This document shows, piece by piece, positions 44,981-61,252 of a stretch of 64,000 nt of DNA. Made by a program: the position numbers and the translations under genes. The notes under the pieces are model-generated. The model saw only the letters and a program-made list of their open reading frames with translations, did not search any database and had not been told where the DNA came from. The DNA lies in the NCBI GenBank assembly GCA_963841915.1, contig CAWJEN010000006.1, positions 992,001-1,056,000 of the forward strand. Reading direction: 5' to 3'. Every line of letters starts with the position of its first letter. Position 1 is the first letter of the stretch. This DNA is from an uncultured Planctomycetota bacterium. Lineage in GTDB: Bacteria; Planctomycetota; Phycisphaerae; Tepidisphaerales; Tepidisphaeraceae.

Positions 44981-46126
44981 CGTGTGCAGTCGGTGGTTTT
45001 CGTCGTCGGACAACGCGGCCGGCGGCAAAGTGCCGCGGCCGTTGCGTTGAGTTGCGGGCAGTGAGTGTAGCCCGCCTGCTGGCGTTTCGCATGCATGCAG
45101 CGAGAAGAAGCCTCTCCGCCAACCGCTCATAAGGTTCAATCGGGTGAAAAGCCACGAGGTTCATCGGCACATTACGTGCTGAAACGGCCATCGGCCGCCA
45201 GGCTTGCAGCTGTGCGATGTCAGGGGTCGATCGCTCGCTAGCGACCGTTTCGGAAGCGAAAGCCGGATCAAATTGTCGCGCGACGTCACCCCAGGCGTCG
45301 CACGGAGCATCGTGCGTCTCAACATGAGAAGCGGCGGCGTCGGGCGGCGCACGCACCCCACAGGCTTAGAGCTTGAGCAAAGCGACGGCAACGCAGCCAC
45401 TTTGGTTCGATCCAGGAAGAGCTAAGCGGCCGTAGCCCCGGCTTGTGTCAGTCAACAGAGTCGGCAGTCGCTCGCGTCAGCAACAGATGGACCTCGCGGT
45501 CGGCATCCTCCAGTCTTGCAGTAGGCGAACGGTGCGAATGCCCGTGACTGAAACGGGTTCAACTTTCGTCGCCTGCACCTGGATGCGAAGACGTAGAAGC
45601 AACGAGGAAGCAGCCAGGCGGATGGAGTCGAACGCTCCCCACAGCAAGTACATCGCGTCTCCCAACGTAGTCCACGGTTGCCAAGCCAGTGCCGCAGCCC
45701 GTCACCCGTTTCGACAACTGCCCCTTAGGGAACAGGCGCTTACATGCGCGGAAGACAGAGCCGGATGATGTGCGGCGGCAGGCTCAGCTTCGGGCACGCC
45801 GAAGCTTCCGAAGCCACTCGCCCAATCTGCTCAGGCATCATGTTGTGCAGCTATGAGCGTCGTGAATGCCGGATCGAACGGGAACATCCAATAGCAACCG
45901 ACAGCCTGAAGGTGTGAATAAGCGGGATTCGTGACGATGAGCAACCAGTTCCACAAGAGGCCGACCACCAGCCTGAGCAGCTACTTATTGTTCCATCCGC
46001 TCAACGTCATGCTTCTTCTCACCTCTGCAAGTCCGGCAGGACAAGGCGGTTGAGCTACTCAAGGATCAGTTATCGAGAGGGACGGCGGTCAATGGGTCAG
46101 GCAGAAAGACAAACGATCCGCGCAGC

Positions 46127-46156
46127 AAAAACCCCGCAGCGTGAACTGCGGGGTTT
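46127..46156 (-). terminator. Intrinsic terminator after the 16S gene
   Basis: Minus strand AAACCCCGCAG-TTCACG-CTGCGGGGTTTTT. Confidence 0.75.
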
Positions 46157-46293
46157 CTGTCTCTTGGACAGGAGAATAGTCGGATCGACGACCACCGTGA
46201 GGTGGCCCCATGTGAATGGGCGAGGATGCGCTGACGAGCGTTCTTCACTCGGCGGACGAGTCCGCTTTGCTTCTGAACGTCTACGTAATCCCG

Positions 46294-47784
<1,491 letters not shown>

Positions 47785-48292
47785 TTGTTCTTGATGCAGC
47801 CGACCGAAGCCAACTGCTTAATCTCAAACGTTGAAGGTTTGCCCTTGCCGATCGACTTATAAGGAAATAAGACGACCGGCGATGTGGCAACCGAAGTTGC
47901 CACGGACAAGACTCTAACTTTTTTCTAGCTGGCACGCCGCTTTGGCCGAAGCCTCTACGACGTGTTCTTAACTAAATTGGGGATCACTTGCGTACACGCA
48001 AGGATGTGCTTGTTAGAGCTTTTTTGGAAGGACTCTTGCGAGCCCTTAGATCTATGCCACTTACCATCGCTGGTGAGTGGCCACATCCTCGCGGCGATCC
48101 GACTATTCACCTGTCAAAGAACCTTTCCGCTTCGTCGCGTGCCTTTCGGCGTTGCGTCCGTCGCGGTGGGCAGTGTAGGCGGCTTTGGCTGGTGGTCCAG
48201 TGTCTTGCCGCTTTTTTCTGCCGTCGCCTCCGTCGCGTTGAACTCTGCTGAACAATCTGTTCGGCATTTGTTCCCCGCTGCGGGTGCCGGGA

Positions 48293-48320
48293 AAGATAGG
48301 CCGCCCCTTCCATTCGTCAA
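48293..48320 (-). promoter_or_regulatory. rrn-type sigma70 promoter
   Basis: TTGACG-N16-TATCTT followed by a GC-rich discriminator; boxA-like GTTCTTTGACA at about 48112-48123. Confidence 0.6.
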
Positions 48321-53118: not shown

Positions 53119-53730
53119 TCAGTCCTTTTCCCGCCGGACGCCGAGTTCGCGGGCGATTTCGCCGTCGAGTTTGTCGAGCTGGCTGAGTTCTTCCTGTTCC
53201 TCTGCCACGACGTCCGCCTCGATCATGCGGTCGATTTCGTCGTCGGTCACCAGATCGTCTCGACTGCCGGCCGCCGCGGGGTCGGCCGAGCCGCCCTGCT
53301 CCATGGCGTCGAGGAACAGGTCCATCCGCTCTTCCATGCTGCCGGCCTGGCTGACGGCTTTCTCCCAGTCGGCCTGCGTCTTGGTCAGATCCAGCTCACC
53401 GAAACTGCGACCGATCTCGCGGGCGATGACGTTCATGCTCTCGGCAAACTCTCGACCGGCCTCGGCCTGCTTCTGGATGAGCATCGCGTTCTTCATGCTC
53501 AGCAATTGCCGCTCGAGCATCTTCCGCACTGCCGCAGTCCGCTTGAGGCTGCCGCGGATGAATTGGTACTGCTGCTCATCGCCGACGCGTTTGGCCTGCC
53601 GGGCGTTCTTGAGAAAGTCCTCGCCGAAGCGTTCCTGTTGTTTGATGGAACGCTCGATTGACCGCAGCGACTGCCGCAGCCGCATGTCCCGCTCGACGCG
53701 GCGTTCTTCTTTGCTTTTGAACAGGCCCAT
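53119..53730 (-). CDS. ESCRT-III-like protein (Vps24/CHMP3-class appearance), 203 aa
   Basis: MGLF start; basic helical hairpin LRQSLRSIERSIKQQER...ARQAKRVGD; AGSMEERMD; acidic tail with EIDRMI. The family call is by eye only. Confidence 0.65.
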   Translation of the reverse strand: MGLFKSKEERRVERDMRLRQSLRSIERSIKQQERFGEDFLKNARQAKRVGDEQQYQFIRGSLKRTAAVRKMLERQLLSMKNAMLIQKQAEAGREFAESMNVIAREIGRSFGELDLTKTQADWEKAVSQAGSMEERMDLFLDAMEQGGSADPAAAGSRDDLVTDDEIDRMIEADVVAEEQEELSQLDKLDGEIARELGVRREKD

Positions 53731-53741
53731 GAGGCGACAGC

Positions 53742-54377
53742 TTACGAGCCGGCGGCCGCTTCTGCTTGACTGGACGATCCACCGGCCAGCTTCTTGCGCG
53801 TCGCTTCCTCTGCCTGTTGGTACGCCTCGTCTTCTTCCACGCTGCCGGCGTCGAGCTGGTCCCACAGATGCATGAGATCGTTACCGCTTTTGCCCAGCTC
53901 CGCCGACTCGATCGCCTCGCGGTCAGCCATGCCGCCGATCTCGAGCAGTTGATCAAGCTTTTCGGCGTACACCTCCTGCCCCACCGCGTCGCTTTCGAGC
54001 CACCCGCTGACCTTGGCCATGTCCTTGGCAGTGAGATTCAATCGGCCGGCCCCGCTGGACGACTGCTGATTTTCTTTCACCATCCGCAGCCGGGCGACCG
54101 TCATGAGCTCTTTGCTCCGCAGGTTCAGCTCGCGGGCGGCCATGAGCTGTTCCTGCGTCTTGAGCTCGAAGTCCTGGGCCAGCGTCTTTCGCAGCTCCGG
54201 CGAACTCGACTGCTTGCCCTGCCTGAAGATTTCGTGCTTCTTCTGGGCGATGTCGTCGACGTTCTTGAACAGCTTGTCGCGACGCTTGGTGATGAGGATC
54301 TCCTCACGACGAAGCTCGCCGCGCGACAGCTGGCTGAGCGTCTTGTTCCGCCCGAAGATGCGATCGATCAGGGCCAC
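53742..54377 (-). CDS. ESCRT-III/Snf7-like helical protein, 211 aa
   Basis: GTG start with GAGGA RBS; amphipathic MALIDRIFG N-terminus; basic N-half and acidic C-half; alignable with the C-terminal domain of the upstream gene. Confidence 0.55.
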   Translation of the reverse strand: MALIDRIFGRNKTLSQLSRGELRREEILITKRRDKLFKNVDDIAQKKHEIFRQGKQSSSPELRKTLAQDFELKTQEQLMAARELNLRSKELMTVARLRMVKENQQSSSGAGRLNLTAKDMAKVSGWLESDAVGQEVYAEKLDQLLEIGGMADREAIESAELGKSGNDLMHLWDQLDAGSVEEDEAYQQAEEATRKKLAGGSSSQAEAAAGS

Positions 54378-54391
54378 GGTGCTGCTTTTCC

Positions 54392-55939
54392 TCAGTTGGC
54401 CTCTGCCCGCCGGGCCGGAGCGGCCTCGGGCTCGTCTTCAACAGGTGCTTCGACCTCGAACGCCCCGGCTGCCGGGTCTTTGGCCTTTTGCTTCGTCACC
54501 GGAATCTCACGCTCGAACGATGGCGTCTCGGCCTCCTTCGCCTTCATCGACTCGGCCGTCAGCTCGGCGTAGAGACGTTCTTCCTCGTCGCTCAAGCCCG
54601 TCGCGCCCGTCGAACCACCGGCCAGCTCGTCGGCCATTTCGGTCGTCACCTGCAGGTCGGCCAAGACCTCCTCGGCCCGGGCGGCGTCGTTGGCCAGCTC
54701 GTCGGCCGTCGGTAGCTTGCCGGCGACGCTGCCGGCCCGGGCCAGCTCCAGGTTGTGCAGGTGCGTGCCGACGACGTTGATCTGCTGGTTCAGCACGCCC
54801 ACCGTCTGCCGGCGGCGGTCGACGTCTTTACCGAGCTGCACGAGCTGGCTCGTGATGCGACGCCTGGCACCAGTCGACTCCTCCGCCGCGAATGACGCTT
54901 TAAGTTCCCGCTCGCGATCCTCGAGCGTCGCCATCTCGTCGTATTGGCGGTCGCGCTGGCGCGACAACGCCGCCCGCTGTTCGGCGAGTTCTGACAAGCG
55001 GGCCTCGGGTGAGACGTTGGCCCCGAGCATGCGACGCAGACGGTCCATGGTCGAAAGTGTACCCGACGATGCCGCCTGCGACCCGGCCCCTTGCGACGTG
55101 CCAGTCAAACTTTCGTCACGGAACAACATCGGCACGCCGTTCACCGGCTTGACCCGCAACGGCTCGCCGCTCCGCGCCGCCCATTGCTGCGTCGCCAACG
55201 CCACCGCACCGATCGGCAGATTCAATTGGTCGGCCAAGTCGTCCAAAGCGACGGCACCGGTGAGCAGGTCGATCTTCCGCTTGTCCAACGCCGCCGCGAC
55301 ACGGGCCTGCCGCTCGGCAGGTGCTTCGGGATCGAGCATCGCGATCAATCGTCCCGCAGCCGCCGGACCGGTCAACGTGAACCCACCGGCGTCGTTGGGC
55401 TCGATCAGAATCGTCGGAGGCCCGTCGACGAAGCTGCGGGCGACCTGCCTCGCTTCCTCCGTGAATCCACTGCCGCTGAACAGGATCAGCGTCATCGGTC
55501 CGCCGAATTGGTCGGACGGCGTCTTGCTGTCGCCTGGTGGTGGCAGTTGCCCGACCCGACGGCGAACGTCGTCTGATCCCATCGGCACGGGCTCGCGGCC
55601 ACGTGCAAGATCATCCCAGGGCGGCATCGACGCGAATCGAACGTGCGCTACCGGTTGCCGAAACGCCAGCAACACCTGACGGCCCAGCGACGCATCGAGG
55701 CCTTCGCCGATCGGCATCGCGTCTTGAAGCTCAAAGTCCGGCCGATCGGCGGCGACGAGCGACTGCTTCACCGCAGCCGCCTGATTCCACCGCACCACAA
55801 TCGGCGAAAACGCCATCGCCGGCTTCGGCCCAAGCGTCGTCGGCACGACGAACGCCCGGTCCGACAACAACCCGGTAACGTGGCTCACCACGCGTCGTTC
55901 ACTCTCCCGCTGCTTTCTGGCGGCTTGCGTGTCGCTCAT
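54392..55939 (-). CDS. Multidomain protein: alpha/beta domain + winged helix + ESCRT-III-like C-terminal domain, 515 aa
   Basis: LILFSGSGFTEEA; HTH-like VALDDLADQLNLPIGAV...LRVKPVNGVPMLF; Ser/Gly linker; MDRLRRMLG followed by a long helical hairpin. Confidence 0.55.
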   Translation of the reverse strand: MSDTQAARKQRESERRVVSHVTGLLSDRAFVVPTTLGPKPAMAFSPIVVRWNQAAAVKQSLVAADRPDFELQDAMPIGEGLDASLGRQVLLAFRQPVAHVRFASMPPWDDLARGREPVPMGSDDVRRRVGQLPPPGDSKTPSDQFGGPMTLILFSGSGFTEEARQVARSFVDGPPTILIEPNDAGGFTLTGPAAAGRLIAMLDPEAPAERQARVAAALDKRKIDLLTGAVALDDLADQLNLPIGAVALATQQWAARSGEPLRVKPVNGVPMLFRDESLTGTSQGAGSQAASSGTLSTMDRLRRMLGANVSPEARLSELAEQRAALSRQRDRQYDEMATLEDRERELKASFAAEESTGARRRITSQLVQLGKDVDRRRQTVGVLNQQINVVGTHLHNLELARAGSVAGKLPTADELANDAARAEEVLADLQVTTEMADELAGGSTGATGLSDEEERLYAELTAESMKAKEAETPSFEREIPVTKQKAKDPAAGAFEVEAPVEDEPEAAPARRAEAN

Positions 55940-56098: not shown

Positions 56099-56968
56099 CT
56101 AGCCCAGTGCTTCCGTCGTCGGCGTGACCCGGCCGCACCGCGGGCAGAACGTTGCATCGACCGGAAGCTCGGCCCGACAGTCCTCGTGCGGACAATGCCG
56201 TGCCCGCCCGACCATCGCCGGCACCGCCTGCTTGGGCCGCTTGTCCCGCACGCGGCCGCGGAGCACGACGCCGAGCCTTTGCAACTGCTGCCGATCCGTT
56301 CGCGTCACGATGCGACGCAACGCGACGACGCTCACCGCCATGGGCAGCGCCCAGGTGATGCCCGTGTAGGCCAGCACGATTGCTGCCGTGGTCGGCACGA
56401 TGGCCATGCCGAAGTCCCATGCTTTGGGCGACTTCCAGGTTGCTTCGTCGAAGTGTCGGACAAAGCTCAACCCGGATCGGCCGTGCAGGTTGGCCCCAAC
56501 CCATGTGAGGAGAAATGAGAGGCCAATGAGCCCGAGAAACGCCATCTGCGGCGGCTTGGGCTCGCTGCCGCGGAACGGGTCGACGAGCCAAAGCCGCCAC
56601 AACGGCTCACCGATGACGAGGTGCATGACGGCAGCCAACCCCGCCGCCAACGCCACCGCCTGGGCGGCCAGTGCCAGCACCTTCGCTGCGTGATCCTTCG
56701 CCTCGTCACCCGCCTTGCCGTCGAGCCTGGCCCAGTCGGCGACATGGCCCAGCACGTCTCGTCGCCACCGAACCGCGGTTCTAAGACACGATGCGTTGAT
56801 CCACGCCGGCCCCAACCCGGCTGTCGCAAGCCCGAGAACAAACGTCTGCCACACGTGCCCCTGCGTCGCCTCGGGCGGCGTGCGATCCAGCGTCGTCAGC
56901 AACGTCGACGTCAGCAGAGGCGGCGATTCGCCTCCGTCTGTGGCGTGCATGTCGTCGAGCACTTTCAT
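56099..56968 (-). CDS. Membrane protein with C-terminal zinc ribbon
   Basis: 4-5 hydrophobic segments; CPHEDC...ATFCPRCG. Confidence 0.7.
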   Translation of the reverse strand: MKVLDDMHATDGGESPPLLTSTLLTTLDRTPPEATQGHVWQTFVLGLATAGLGPAWINASCLRTAVRWRRDVLGHVADWARLDGKAGDEAKDHAAKVLALAAQAVALAAGLAAVMHLVIGEPLWRLWLVDPFRGSEPKPPQMAFLGLIGLSFLLTWVGANLHGRSGLSFVRHFDEATWKSPKAWDFGMAIVPTTAAIVLAYTGITWALPMAVSVVALRRIVTRTDRQQLQRLGVVLRGRVRDKRPKQAVPAMVGRARHCPHEDCRAELPVDATFCPRCGRVTPTTEALG

Positions 56969-57046
56969 CGCGTTGTCTTGTCGATCTGAAGACGCAGCTG
57001 CCCACAACGTGCGACGCTCGGATGCAGCACCGCTCGCTTCGCAGGT

Positions 57047-57376: not shown

Positions 57377-57724
57377 TTACGCGATGGGCGACGCCAAGGT
57401 GCGGCCGCAACGCCGACAGAATCGGGCACCGGCCGGATTCTCGCAGCTGCAACGCAGGTTGCCGCAAGGTACGCCCAGCGTCACCGGCGAGACCACGTAC
57501 CGCGACCGCCCGCCCAACGACGGGCCGATTCCGATCGCCCGGAACGGCAGCGCGATGACCCAGCCGACGGTGTACCCGATGCCCTCGAGCACGGTCGCCA
57601 GCAGCCTGATCGTGCCGCGAATGAGCAGAAGGAGACCGCCGATCGTCCAGATGAGCAGGTACGAGGCGAAGATCGACACGAGGACGACCCCGACCATGAG
57701 CACGATGGTTTTGACGATCATCAT
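57377..57724 (-). CDS. Small membrane protein with zinc ribbon
   Basis: TM segments; CGNLRCSCENPAGARFCRRCG; start overlaps the kinase stop. Confidence 0.75.
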   Translation of the reverse strand: MMIVKTIVLMVGVVLVSIFASYLLIWTIGGLLLLIRGTIRLLATVLEGIGYTVGWVIALPFRAIGIGPSLGGRSRYVVSPVTLGVPCGNLRCSCENPAGARFCRRCGRTLASPIA

Positions 57725-58818
57725 GCCTTGCCTCCTGTCGCGGCGGCTTTGGACCCGCTCAGGCCGTTGCCGCAGAACATGCAGTACGCGTCACCGGGCG
57801 CCGGGAACGCCCCGCACTTGCCGCAGCGACAGATCGCCTCGACGAGTTGCTTGCCGCACCGCATGCAGAACTGGTCGTTGGGGTCGGCCCTGCCGCCACA
57901 AGACGGGCAGCTGCCGGCCGCAAGCTGTTTCAGGCCTTCCGGCACCTGCGCTCGTGACGGGGCTGATGCACTGCCGATGAGCGCGGCCGCAAATGCGCCG
58001 GCAGAGGCAAAGCGGTTGTCGAGCCTCGCATAGCTACGCCGGAACGCTTCGTCCAAGTGCGACGGCACGTTCTTGACGAGATCGCTCGGCACGTCCGTAC
58101 CGGCCGGTCGTTCGCCCGTGAGCATCTCGAAGAGCATCACGCCACACGCGTACACATCGGCTCGGCCGTCGACGTTGGCGTTGGTCCGCTGCTCGGGCGC
58201 CATGTAGTCGAGGCTGCCGGCAACGCTGCCGGTGGCCGTGTTGTCGGTCGTGAAGACGAGACTGCCGGCCCCGCCCGTGGCAACGCCACTGGCCGCGTGC
58301 TCGGCGGCACCGAGGCCGAAATCAGTCAATTTCACCAGGCCGTCGCCGGCCAATCCCGGGCCGCCCGCTTTGAGGGCCTGCTCGTGGATGAGAACGTTCT
58401 CGGGCTTGACGTCGCGGTGGACGACGCCCCGCTCGTGGGCGTGGGAAAGGGCGGCCAGAACCTGGGCGAGGACAGCCGTCGCATCATCGGGCCTCATTCT
58501 TCCGCGGCCGATGAGGTCGCGCAGCGTCGTGCCCGGCACGTACTCCATGACGAGGTAAGGCGTCTCGGCAAACGGGTCGATGCCGATCGCCTTGACGATG
58601 CCGATGTGGTCGAGCCGGTGGGCCATCACGCCCTCACGACGCAACGCCTGGAGATAAGCCGGGTCGCGCGGCAGTTTGACGGCGGCAATCTGGTCGGCCC
58701 AGACGTGGTGGCGGGCCCGCCACACGTCGCCGAACGTGCCGTGGCCGACGGGCGACTCCAGCACCCACTCGGCGATACGGCTGCCTTCGCGTGGTTGTCG
58801 TGCGTCTGACTTTGGCAT
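57721..58818 (-). CDS. Hanks-type Ser/Thr protein kinase with C-terminal double zinc ribbon
   Basis: GHGTFG, AAVK, HRDVKPEN, DFG, YMAPE, DVYACG; CPSCG..FCMRCG..CGKCG..YCMFCG; no TM segment. Confidence 0.92.
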   Translation of the reverse strand: MPKSDARQPREGSRIAEWVLESPVGHGTFGDVWRARHHVWADQIAAVKLPRDPAYLQALRREGVMAHRLDHIGIVKAIGIDPFAETPYLVMEYVPGTTLRDLIGRGRMRPDDATAVLAQVLAALSHAHERGVVHRDVKPENVLIHEQALKAGGPGLAGDGLVKLTDFGLGAAEHAASGVATGGAGSLVFTTDNTATGSVAGSLDYMAPEQRTNANVDGRADVYACGVMLFEMLTGERPAGTDVPSDLVKNVPSHLDEAFRRSYARLDNRFASAGAFAAALIGSASAPSRAQVPEGLKQLAAGSCPSCGGRADPNDQFCMRCGKQLVEAICRCGKCGAFPAPGDAYCMFCGNGLSGSKAAATGGKA

Positions 58819-58966
58819 CGTGCTCACTTCGCGTCCGTGGTTCCCCGCACAAGGTACCACGAAAAGCGGACCATGGGCAGGGCAAAGTTGGCGCCAAACC
58901 CGGCGAAAGCTGTCGCAACTTTCGGCAGGTGGCTCGCCAGGCCTGTCGCCGAAGAGCCCCGCGGGG

Positions 58967-59362
58967 TCATCCGACGAGTCGGTCGGCGATGAAGTCGCAG
59001 GTCAGGAGATTGTACGCCGTGGCCAGCAGTGCCCCGACGATGAAAAACCCGATCGCGACGCCGCCTCCGACGCCAAAATCAAACATCCACCAGAGTCCGA
59101 GAAGTTCCAGCAGCGAGACCGTTGCGACCAGAAAAATGCCCGCACCGTTCGAATCGGCCCGCGCAACTTTGACGACCACGCCCACCAGCACCCAGGGCGT
59201 CACGGCGACGATGAGCACCCACGCCACGATCTTGCCCCCCGCGTCGAAGAACACCGCCCGCCCTTCGGGCCCCGCCTGCCAGAACGCGATAGCCGCCACA
59301 ACGACGGCCAGGAAGACGAACCCGCCGACGACCTTGCCGCCGATGCCTTTGAGGAAGTCCAT
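58967..59362 (-). CDS. Small 4-TM membrane protein
   Basis: 131 aa with four hydrophobic helices; co-oriented upstream of the kinase. Confidence 0.7.
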   Translation of the reverse strand: MDFLKGIGGKVVGGFVFLAVVVAAIAFWQAGPEGRAVFFDAGGKIVAWVLIVAVTPWVLVGVVVKVARADSNGAGIFLVATVSLLELLGLWWMFDFGVGGGVAIGFFIVGALLATAYNLLTCDFIADRLVG

Positions 59363-59450: not shown

Positions 59451-60434
59451 ATGCCGCGGACGCTCGATTACGCCCGGCAGCAGACATCTGGCGGGCCTCG
59501 ACTCGACGTGTGCGTCATCATCGCCGTTTGGGCGACGGCGTGCCTGCCCTTTCTGGCGATTCTCGGCGATGTTTTGCGTGGTCTGGCCAATTTGCTGACC
59601 GCGCTGGCTGCGGCGATTGCCGTCATAGCCGCGATCATCGGCATCGTGCGGACCTCGACGTTTCGCGGCATTCGGATCGTGACCGTCCATCGCCCGACCT
59701 ACGGCACCGGGCTGGCGGCAGCGTGCCTCATCATCGGCGGACTCGTTCTGCTGGCGAACCTGATGCCGACCTACAGCGGCCGATCGCCAAAGGCGGCAGC
59801 CATGGTCAAGTGCGGATTTAATCTGCGGCAGATCGGCTTTGCCGCACGGCAGTATGCCCAACTTTATGGAGAATTTCCGAGCGACTTCGAAACGCTGATC
59901 GAGTTAACGGATCTGTCAGCGGAGAGTCTCGTGTGCCCTCATCATGACCTTCCCCGCGGCCAAAGAGGGTTGACGTACAGCTATGTCCCGCTGATGCACG
60001 GACTGACGCCGGCATCACCACCCGATCTTGTGGCTGCGATCTGTCCCTCATACCTCCATCAAAACGACGGAGGCAACGTGCTCTATGCGGACGGGAGCGT
60101 GCGCTTCGAACGACATGACCTGTTGCCGATTCTGCTCGGTGAACAGTTCGCCCGGCCATCGACGCGGCCGGTCGGACAGGTTGACGACGGGCTGAGTGAT
60201 CGAGAAGACCCAGGCGCCGGTGCCACTGATTGGCCGCATTCTGATGCGGACAACCAGTGTCGGTGGCGTATCGCAGCCCAGCCCGGGAGACATAGTCTGC
60301 GTCACATATCCACGCGGGGAAACCGTGTCCGGTGGCGGCAGCGGCACGGTTTGCCCGCCGCAGACGGCGGCTCATACCGTGGCACCGCGGTTCGTCCGCC
60401 GGCCGAATTATTCCGAGTCGCCTGGTGCTTTTGA
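59451..60434 (+). CDS. Membrane-anchored H-X9-DG (DUF1559-like) protein
   Basis: Three TM helices, KCGFNLRQIG.A..QYA, LVCP, HQNDGGNVLYADGSV; the last ~70 codons lie in the repeat. Confidence 0.7.
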   Translation: MPRTLDYARQQTSGGPRLDVCVIIAVWATACLPFLAILGDVLRGLANLLTALAAAIAVIAAIIGIVRTSTFRGIRIVTVHRPTYGTGLAAACLIIGGLVLLANLMPTYSGRSPKAAAMVKCGFNLRQIGFAARQYAQLYGEFPSDFETLIELTDLSAESLVCPHHDLPRGQRGLTYSYVPLMHGLTPASPPDLVAAICPSYLHQNDGGNVLYADGSVRFERHDLLPILLGEQFARPSTRPVGQVDDGLSDREDPGAGATDWPHSDADNQCRWRIAAQPGRHSLRHISTRGNRVRWRQRHGLPAADGGSYRGTAVRPPAELFRVAWCF

Positions 60435-60851
60435 TTGGGCCTGGTGCCACTGATTGGCCGCATTCTGATGCGGACAACCAGTGTCGGTGACGTACCGCAG
60501 CCCGAGCCGGGTGACGTAGTCTGCGCCGTATGTCCACACGCGTAAACCATGTCCGGCGGCGGCAGCGGCACGGTTTGCCCGCCGCAGACGGCGGCTCATA
60601 CCGTGGCACCGCGGTTCGTCCGCCGGCCGAATTATTCCGAGTCGCCTGGTGCTTTTGATTGGGCCTGGTGCCACTGATTGGCCGCATTCTGATGCGGACA
60701 ACCAGTGTCGGTGACGTACCGCAGCCCGAGCCGGGTGACGTAGTCTGCGCCGTATGTCCACACGCGTAAACCATGTCCGGCGGCGGCAGCGGCACGGTTT
60801 GCCCGCCGCAGACGGCGGCTCAAACCGTGGCACCGCGCTTCGTCCGCCGGC
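60219..60851. repeat. 224-bp tandem repeat (about 2.8 copies) of REP-doublet-like hairpin units
   Basis: Units start at 60219, 60443 and 60667 with GGTGCCACTGATTGG. Each contains an inverted GTGGCACC and two internal hairpins. Confidence 0.9.
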
Positions 60852-61060
60852 AGACACGTTGCGGGTCGCTCGGTGCCGCGGCATGTCTCATTGAGATACG
60901 TTGGCGGAACACGCGTTGCGCCGCGGCGGCCGCGGCGGCGCGTGTTGTAATCGGGCGTACGGTGTACGGCGGCGGACTTGTTTGTCCGTCCAAAAGCTGC
61001 ACGGCGAATAACATTTTTAACGCGTGGCCGACGACCCGCCGACGTACTCGGCGGAGTCGA

Positions 61061-61076
61061 TGTTCCACGTGGAACA
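61061..61076. promoter_or_regulatory. parS-like site
   Basis: TGTTCCACGTGGAACA. Confidence 0.8.
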
Positions 61077-61127
61077 TTCGGCGGCGGTTGCCGACACGGC
61101 TGGTGACGCGTGGCGAGGGTCGGCCGA

Positions 61128-61143
61128 TGTTCCACGTGGAACA
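61128..61143. promoter_or_regulatory. parS-like site
   Basis: TGTTCCACGTGGAACA. Confidence 0.8.
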
Positions 61144-61192
61144 TTCGACCCACCGCCAACCGCCGCCGCCCACGTGGCCGCCGCGGCGCAAC

Positions 61193-61229
61193 AAAAAATG
61201 CCCCGCGGCTGGTTAGGCCGCGGGGCATT
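61193..61229 (-). terminator. Intrinsic terminator of dnaK
   Basis: Minus strand AATGCCCCGCGGC-CTAACCA-GCCGCGGGGCATTTTTT. Confidence 0.8.
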
Positions 61230-61252
61230 CGTGGTGGGGGTGAAGGGAGCGC

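Follow-up and report, generated by a model that had tools for sequence, protein, structure and literature searches.

A gene of an uncultured member of the Tepidisphaeraceae (Planctomycetota, class Phycisphaerae) appears to join an adaptor-like N-terminal module to an ESCRT-III-like C-terminal half. The question it raises is whether its product is a bacterial relative of CHMP7, as an initial annotation had suggested, and what such a protein would do in the cell. CHMP7 is thought to be the product of fusing ESCRT-II with ESCRT-III, and its N-terminal half, a membrane adaptor, consists of Vps25-like winged helices in tandem and binds the membrane through a hydrophobic hairpin loop (10.1101/049221, in the portion of that study available to us). 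We analyzed the gene within a window of 64,000 nucleotides, i.e., the whole stretch of DNA under study.

The fusion gene and its structural model

The gene is a single open reading frame that contains LILFSGSGFTEEARQVA and the MDRLRRMLG motif (Table 1), and it is present as one copy in the 3.6-Mb genome, which is 94% complete. Among 8000 candidates scored, 78 relatives of the 515-residue protein were obtained, with 458 representatives at E<=0.001; their records are named as hypothetical proteins of Planctomycetota, Phycisphaerae or Tepidisphaeraceae. A promoter scan found none.

Table 1. Positions in the window of the fusion gene, its predicted parts and the genes of the conserved block
Feature	Position	Strand	Evidence
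515-aa fusion gene (N module plus ESCRT-III-like subunit A)	54392..55939	-	Reading frame, AlphaFold2, comparison of split and fused loci
Mrr-like restriction-endonuclease fold without catalytic motifs, residues 1-204	55328..55939	-	hhalign, weak Foldseek matches
Long beta-hairpin, residues 80-104, proposed membrane anchor	55628..55702	-	AlphaFold2, homologue conservation
Single winged-helix domain, residues 205-277	55109..55327	-	Model, structural search
Linker, presumed former intergenic region, with an internal ribosome-binding site predicted in relatives	55049..55108	-	pLDDT <50 at 285-294
In-frame ATG, Met298, candidate internal start	55046..55048	-	Linker ATG in 34/37 fused loci; weak site here
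ESCRT-III-like half, residues 298-471: amphipathic helix 0, hairpin, two further helices	54527..55048	-	Homology to standalone genes and neighbour B
Neighbour B, 211 aa, helical paralogue of the C-terminal half	53742..54377	-	Profile-profile comparison
Neighbour C, 203 aa, Snf7-family ESCRT-III protein; probable ATPase-recruiting subunit	53119..53730	-	CHMP3/Snf7 profile hits, Pfam, co-occurrence
Membrane protein with C-terminal zinc ribbon, start uncertain	56099..57007	-	Weak Pfam zinc-ribbon hits; 3 hydrophobic segments; conserved in family loci
Small membrane protein with zinc ribbon, 105 aa	57047..57364	-	Pfam, conservation, hydrophobic segments
Small membrane protein with zinc ribbon, 115 aa	57377..57724	-	Pfam, conservation, hydrophobic segments
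Cytoplasmic Ser/Thr kinase with C-terminal double zinc ribbon	57721..58860	-	Pfam Pkinase E 4.5e-39; DZR weak
Four-segment membrane protein, 131 aa, first gene of the conserved block	58967..59362	-	Conservation; no Pfam/NCBIfam hit

AlphaFold2 modelled the full 515 residues with a pLDDT of 87 and a pTM of 0.76 (67 alignment rows), and the first 280 residues with a pLDDT of 96 (127 rows). The model is laid out as an alpha/beta region (1-201, assigned to the domain 1-204), a winged-helix topology (207-274, assigned to the domain 205-277), a linker disordered at 285-294, an amphipathic helix at 298 and a helical hairpin (311-406), after which helices 412-440 and 451-471 lead to a disordered acidic tail. 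Residues 298-408 hold 20 basic and 16 acidic residues, and residues 409-515 hold 10 and 27, respectively; MDRLRRMLG ranks 8/506 by hydrophobic moment among nine-residue windows. The low-complexity linker, amphipathic MDRLRRMLG, helical hairpin and acidic tail that had been read from the sequence at the outset are thus all present in the model or in the composition. Searched against the PDB, the profile of the full-length fusion returned noise only.

The N-terminal module

Compared with the Mrr_cat alignment, residues 1-204 gave an hhalign value of 92% (E 5.5e-7) over 49 columns only; a second alignment gave 74%, and nine controls reached at most 0.9%. The part shared with Mrr corresponds to the second half of the core fold and its TS/GFT..A motif. 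Foldseek returned weak MspJI and AspBHI rows (E 0.03-0.07), the N-module profile gave three chance rows in the PDB, and restriction enzymes were absent from the best-50 structural lists for both the whole model and the N half; since the N-half lists were filled by winged helices, they barely test the nuclease-like domain. Among the 78 homologues, the catalytic D and (D/E/Q)xK are not conserved (D occurs at the candidate site in 16/78), strand 3 is hydrophobic or carries Arg and has no conserved K, and the Glu of helix 1 is retained in 70/78. In comparison with the Mrr-type type IV restriction endonucleases (Mrr_cat, MspJI, AspBHI), the catalytic strands are replaced by a long basic-aromatic hairpin, and no PD-(D/E)xK motif is present. 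Short N-terminal matches in one family, considered as a truncated module, were rejected as such, the proteins being full length and divergent.

The strands of the hairpin are modelled at E80-89 and E93-104. Its tip is hydrophobic and aromatic, with basic residues on the flanks; at least one aromatic residue occurs in 68/78 homologues and at least two K/R in 74/78. Across the phylum this basic-aromatic character is kept and the sequence is not, which suits a lipid surface.

The model contains one winged helix only, and its structural matches to ESCRT-II are no better than those to unrelated winged helices. Fold and profile together show the N module to be a catalytically dead Mrr-like domain followed by one winged helix. 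The Mrr-like region and the winged-helix fold of the initial annotation are therefore both retained, the former well above the controls and the latter in agreement with the structural search.

The C-terminal half and neighbours B and C

The C-terminal half (subunit A) has an amphipathic helix 0, a basic hairpin, further helices and an acidic tail, as in Snf7-type ESCRT-III proteins, and it is homologous to standalone genes whose products begin with M-L-D-K/R-I-K. Profile-profile comparison of the A family with neighbour B gave 77%, which rose to 95.5% (E 1.6e-8, 146 columns) with wider alignments. The comparison of A with C was not significant, and that of B with C reached only 14%. The initial annotation had taken an unrelated C-terminal domain as grounds for giving up its proposal; since the domain is homologous to the next gene, the proposal stands on this point. 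As to the expected kinship with both neighbours, that with B was found, whereas that with C was not significant.

Direct matches of the C-terminal half are faint. In Foldseek, its top five rows are all CdvB2 chains, at non-significant E values of 0.013-0.07. Its profile retrieved mostly designed coiled coils from the PDB, with CdvB at E 0.89 and CHMP4B at E 2.6, and Snf7 was not among the 25 Pfam families listed for it. Structural alignment of the whole model ranked unrelated hairpins as high as Snf7, the CHMPs, Vipp1 and PspA. In the Atlas, the nearest named clusters carry Snf7 (0.88, to be taken as a lead), with 10/10 in one family or clan, and one homologue, P0206, is named CdvB/Snf7 by its source. 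We regard the C-terminal half as ESCRT-III-like on this indirect evidence. The nearest Snf7-carrying clusters, of about 216 residues, come from Lentisphaerota and Verrucomicrobiota, which suggests that related subunits may span the PVC group.

The profile of neighbour C gave clearer results. Built from ten rows, it matched CHMP3 at E 5e-4; built from 31 rows, it matched CHMP3 at E 2.9e-5 and yeast Snf7 at E 2.8e-4 (177635 sequences), and neither PspA nor Vipp1 was among its nine PDB rows. Pfam Snf7 was detected in 12/31 members (best E 7.9e-6); the copy of the window, searched singly, gave no Snf7 hit. Neighbour B had no ESCRT-III hit of its own in the PDB, and the three helical proteins, scanned as single sequences with Pfam/NCBIfam, yielded nothing of use. 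In the own genome, no real match to Pfam Snf7 or MIT was obtained; the Snf7 search stayed below the cut-off in all 14 controls as well. As judged by these profiles, neighbour C belongs to the Snf7 family, and A and B are paralogues. The ESCRT-III context proposed for the locus is borne out by neighbour C.

The order of the block is membrane protein, kinase, zinc-ribbon membrane proteins, fusion, B and C. It is kept in 16 named loci, and the same block, from the membrane protein to C, is kept in 20 loci from six families. The kinase lies upstream of the fusion in 14/16 and 16/20 class loci; outside the class, it is mostly absent from that position.

Several further features were observed in and around such loci. 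A small PspC-domain gene (L060:9366-9575, E 8.7e-21) lies between B and C, its cluster occurs in 5/20 loci, and it offers a link to the phage-shock system. B, C or the A half is frameshifted in single relatives (L005, L015, L066), possibly from assembly errors. In the window, at about 59800-61230 and before dnaK, overlapping frames have near-identical translated stretches, which suggests a repeated DNA unit; the short shadow frames at about 45400-48300 have the look of what we take to be a ribosomal RNA gene.

Split and fused states

We covered 55/65 loci outside the class. In 45/55, neighbouring but distinct genes encode the N module and A, and none of the 55 is fused; in the remaining 10/55, one half is missing within the stretch or by the cut-off. 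The class loci with both halves are fused in 39/39 cases, one of them a duplicate. In the split state, the winged helix closes the N gene, and a median of 9 bases separates it from A, which begins with M-L-D-K/R-I-K-x-L-F, a motif that recurs inside the fusion. In a quick unrooted tree of 73 N modules, from which four near-duplicate loci were left out, a branch with an SH-aLRT of 94 sets the 36 fused modules apart from the rest. Because split rows occur in 19 families, the fusion is most parsimoniously read as a derived state, specific to Phycisphaerae, that would have arisen from two adjacent genes. The separate existence of the halves elsewhere supports the idea, already voiced in the initial annotation, that this gene is a fusion.

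A candidate internal start

The linker contains an in-frame ATG in nearly all fused loci (Table 1). Its anti-Shine-Dalgarno pairing has a median of -8.2 kcal/mol, with 31/37 loci at or below -5, against a median of -2.0 and 44/304 for other in-frame ATGs; among real B and C starts, 35/61 are at or below -5 kcal/mol. When the position was fixed, i.e., the best ATG was not chosen, 30/37 loci scored, against a background of 19%. In this genome and two others of its genus, the ATG lies three codons later and pairs weakly (-3.8 kcal/mol), as weakly as several true starts of this genome; 10/67 close homologues have no Met within 6 residues. Based on these pairing energies, a free A produced from the internal start is likely in the family, and the odds for it in this genome are about even. 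The internal start at MDRLRR that had been foreseen is thus well founded at the family level, whereas the site is weak here.

Four orphan fusion copies (L164-L167, from G033, G111, G166 and G160) occur in genomes without B, C or the ATPase; three have no ATG, and one has a very weak site. Since these copies form one clade, the loss of the internal start counts as one event.

The Vps4-like ATPase and the distribution of the system

A gene for an AAA ATPase with a three-helix-type N-terminus adjoins the operon on its 3' side in 11/20 class loci. The orthologue in this genome is unlinked (G000:C6:665536-666687; L069:9528-10691), with 51-54% identity over its full length. A system without an ATPase was considered and rejected, given the AAA gene that follows the operon in relatives and the orthologue elsewhere in this genome. 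End-to-end coverage of the ATPase is given by the CdvC model alone (11-385 against 12-367 of 370); over the core, the CDC48 and PAN models score at least as high as CdvC, and all are far below the cut-off. Vps4_C hits are weak, with one over the cut-off. Pfam MIT was found in 0/8 of the ATPase N-termini and weakly in 1/7 of those of a second ATPase described below; the ATPase matched PDB entry 2mpk, which we take to be an MIT domain, at E 0.044. We call the enzyme, a single-ring AAA ATPase of Vps4 architecture whose gene is linked to ESCRT-III genes in relatives, Vps4-like and not Vps4.

Among 301 class genomes from 24 families, the fusion occurs in 95, C in 89 and the N-terminus of the ATPase in 90; six families, the same for all three, account for every case. 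C and the ATPase are both present in 88/301 genomes and both absent from 210, so that they agree in 298/301; one of the three discordant genomes, G260, is unpublished. The fusion is near-universal in four families (46/48, 13/13, 19/19 and 14/14) and was not found in 18/24. In five family genomes, the fusion gene persists (in one of them as a fragment) while C and the ATPase are lacking. Six genomes of the own family are without both C and the unlinked ATPase, and 5/5 of those tested are also without B, a search that had no positive control. C was found in 66/351 genomes drawn from the phylum.

Outside the class (L109-L163), 39/55 loci have a second AAA ATPase close to B and C; it has about 400 residues and a helical N-terminus, and none was seen inside class loci. 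B is doubled in several of the outside loci. A 600-residue gene (L057:6579-8390 and relatives) follows the ATPase in many loci; its C-terminal propeller is weakly supported, and the SPFH label first given by eye to its N-terminus was dropped, as Pfam did not confirm it and gave weak propeller hits only. tblastn found no copy of this gene in G000. Immediately upstream of the ATPase lie short frames of 54-95 residues that duplicate its first 40 residues (G046:C1:1852455-1852583, G151:C139:5266-5385 and G031:C17:38910-39038).

Comparison with known systems

Like CHMP7/Chm7, the protein has an N-terminal adaptor fused to an ESCRT-III-like half, a fusion origin and a candidate membrane-anchor beta-hairpin. 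Unlike CHMP7/Chm7, it has a single winged helix that follows a dead Mrr-like fold, its hairpin belongs to this fold and not to the winged helix, and it shows no specific likeness to Vps25; it also has a conserved internal start and is bacterial, with the fusion confined to one class. With a single winged helix in place of a tandem, the protein may work like CHMP7, but it is not a CHMP7 member, and the kinship originally proposed is not upheld. On our best reading, the fusion is convergent with CHMP7, a membrane adaptor or nucleator having been fused to the first ESCRT-III subunit.

In CdvB, the winged helix is C-terminal. The CdvB/CdvC system of the TACK archaea resembles the present one in joining ESCRT-III to a winged helix, in the top Foldseek rows and in the coverage of the ATPase by the CdvC model; it differs in that the winged helix here is N-terminal and comes from a separate gene, in the scores far under the CdvC cut-off and in that no CdvA was seen. 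PspA/Vipp1 share the superfamily fold and a bacterial host, and some relatives have a PspC-domain gene between B and C; on the other hand, C matches CHMP3 and Snf7 and not PspA, the present system has an ATPase partner, and the genome holds a separate PspA-like gene. At E<=1, PF04012 (PspA_IM30) has one match only in the genome, on another contig; the divergent PspA-like gene G000:C3:216832-217515 (L048) has E 0.0016, below the cut-off.

According to the part of Makarova et al. (2024; PMC10936438) compared here, archaeal loci place a winged-helix gene upstream of ESCRT-III, often with kinases, and systems with both Vps4 and ESCRT-III are limited to archaeal and eukaryotic lineages. The loci of the main clade and of Halo/Meth_adaptin share with ours an upstream winged-helix gene, a Vps4-like ATPase, a Ser/Thr kinase and zinc-ribbon proteins. 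In contrast, the host here is bacterial, there are three to four ESCRT-III-like genes, and the loci outside the class often have the second AAA ATPase. A nuclease-fold adaptor does not appear in the text of that survey as compared, and within this scope the adaptor architecture is new. Ravi et al. (PMC11237479), in the sections available, record Vps4-like ATPases in Planctomycetes, although snf7 is displaced there, and AAA ATPases close to some PspA or Snf7 genes of bacteria; a 2025 review states, in the part at hand, that a Vps4-like ATPase appears absent in bacteria (PMC7619361). The literature searched, with most subscription papers outside its scope, contained no description of the operon or the fusion; the tables or web application of Ravi et al. 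may list the proteins.

Proposed mechanism and alternatives

We propose, with a probability of about 0.55, that the N-terminal adaptor docks on the membrane and seeds A, that the gene yields two products and that a co-polymer of A, B and C is recycled by the Vps4-like ATPase under control of the kinase. The basic-aromatic hairpin would dock the N module, which would hold subunit A, to the cytoplasmic membrane at its inner face. The full-length fusion would seed the polymer; free A from the internal start would be the second protein made. A, B and the Snf7-family C would then co-polymerize. By analogy with known ESCRT biology and given the co-occurrence with C, the ATPase may be recruited through the tail of C and recycle the filament, and the kinase and zinc-ribbon membrane proteins may set place and time. 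Such action would be like that of CHMP7 or Vps25-Vps20, by convergence. The standalone N module and standalone A of L124, when co-modelled, gave an ipSAE of 0.46 against 0.00 for the best control (runs agree 100%, partner pLDDT 77), which hints that the two may bind; the ipSAE mark is reached by 116/157 solved and 2/215 mismatched pairs, with only 18 solved pairs and both mismatches at or below 0.60.

The N module could instead be a protein adaptor whose partners, namely the kinase, cargo in phosphorylated form or the membrane proteins with zinc ribbons, would bring the polymer to the membrane. The upstream kinase and zinc-ribbon genes of most class loci fit this reading, as does a winged helix whose look-alikes include UFL1, PCI domains and ESCRT-II as much as DNA-binding ones; phosphorylation has also been proposed as a cargo signal in archaeal loci (PMC10936438, in the part consulted). 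However, the conserved character of the hairpin tip speaks for lipid, the kinase is mostly missing upstream outside the class, and we consider a protein adaptor rather unlikely. A link to DNA, suggested at the outset, would mean that the nuclease-like domain and the winged helix bind DNA and tether the polymer on the membrane to the nucleoid or to foreign DNA. An Mrr-like fold, Zalpha and transcription factors among the best winged-helix rows and a slightly positive N domain (median net charge +2) agree with it; however, no nuclease active site is conserved, the winged helix has a net charge of about -1, and its recognition helix has no conserved basic position, the only conserved basic residue being the terminal Arg274 (73/78). 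The DNA link is thus not sustained, and we judge it clearly unlikely.

It is still less probable that neither the C-terminal half nor B is an ESCRT-III protein, the two being coiled coils of an unrelated or PspA type next to a single genuine Snf7 gene: direct hits are not significant and the hairpin matches are generic, but helix 0, the short-turn hairpin, two helices and the acidic tail follow the ESCRT-III order, the CdvB2 rows, Snf7 clusters and P0206 all point to ESCRT-III, and the genome has its own weak PspA-like gene. As for the cellular role, planctomycetes are not known to have FtsZ, and the system might be their cell-division machine, as Cdv is in Sulfolobales, with the fusion protein as ring nucleator. 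No FtsZ match was found in this 94% complete genome (control positive in 13/14), the gene is single-copy and near-universal in four families, and Tepidisphaeraceae are described as dividing by binary fission in the section of PMC13514998 at hand. Its absence from 18/24 families and the losses within the own family nevertheless argue against an essential division role, which we hold to be distinctly unlikely; repair or vesicle formation is likelier. Returning to the seeding model, its likeliest job is a non-essential membrane remodelling of this kind. Vesicles of 40-50 nm at even spacing cover Terricella alpina, another member of the family, according to the same portion of PMC13514998.

Implications

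Planctomycetes have membrane invaginations and vesicles that are unexplained. Tentatively, and with the balance against so broad a claim, FtsZ-less planctomycetes may have a complete sequential ESCRT-III/Vps4-type fission machine with a dead-nuclease adaptor, from which Phycisphaerae would independently have made a CHMP7-like nucleator whose internal start fixes the ratio of seed to filament, the machine cutting membranes in vesicle release or in the division of the lineages that carry it. The system would be a multi-subunit bacterial counter-example, across many planctomycete families, to a confinement of Vps4 plus ESCRT-III to archaea and eukaryotes. Its split and fused states, side by side, show how a CHMP7-like fusion of adaptor and ESCRT-III can arise, and a cultured carrier, Fontivita pretiosa (locus L004), makes the role directly testable.
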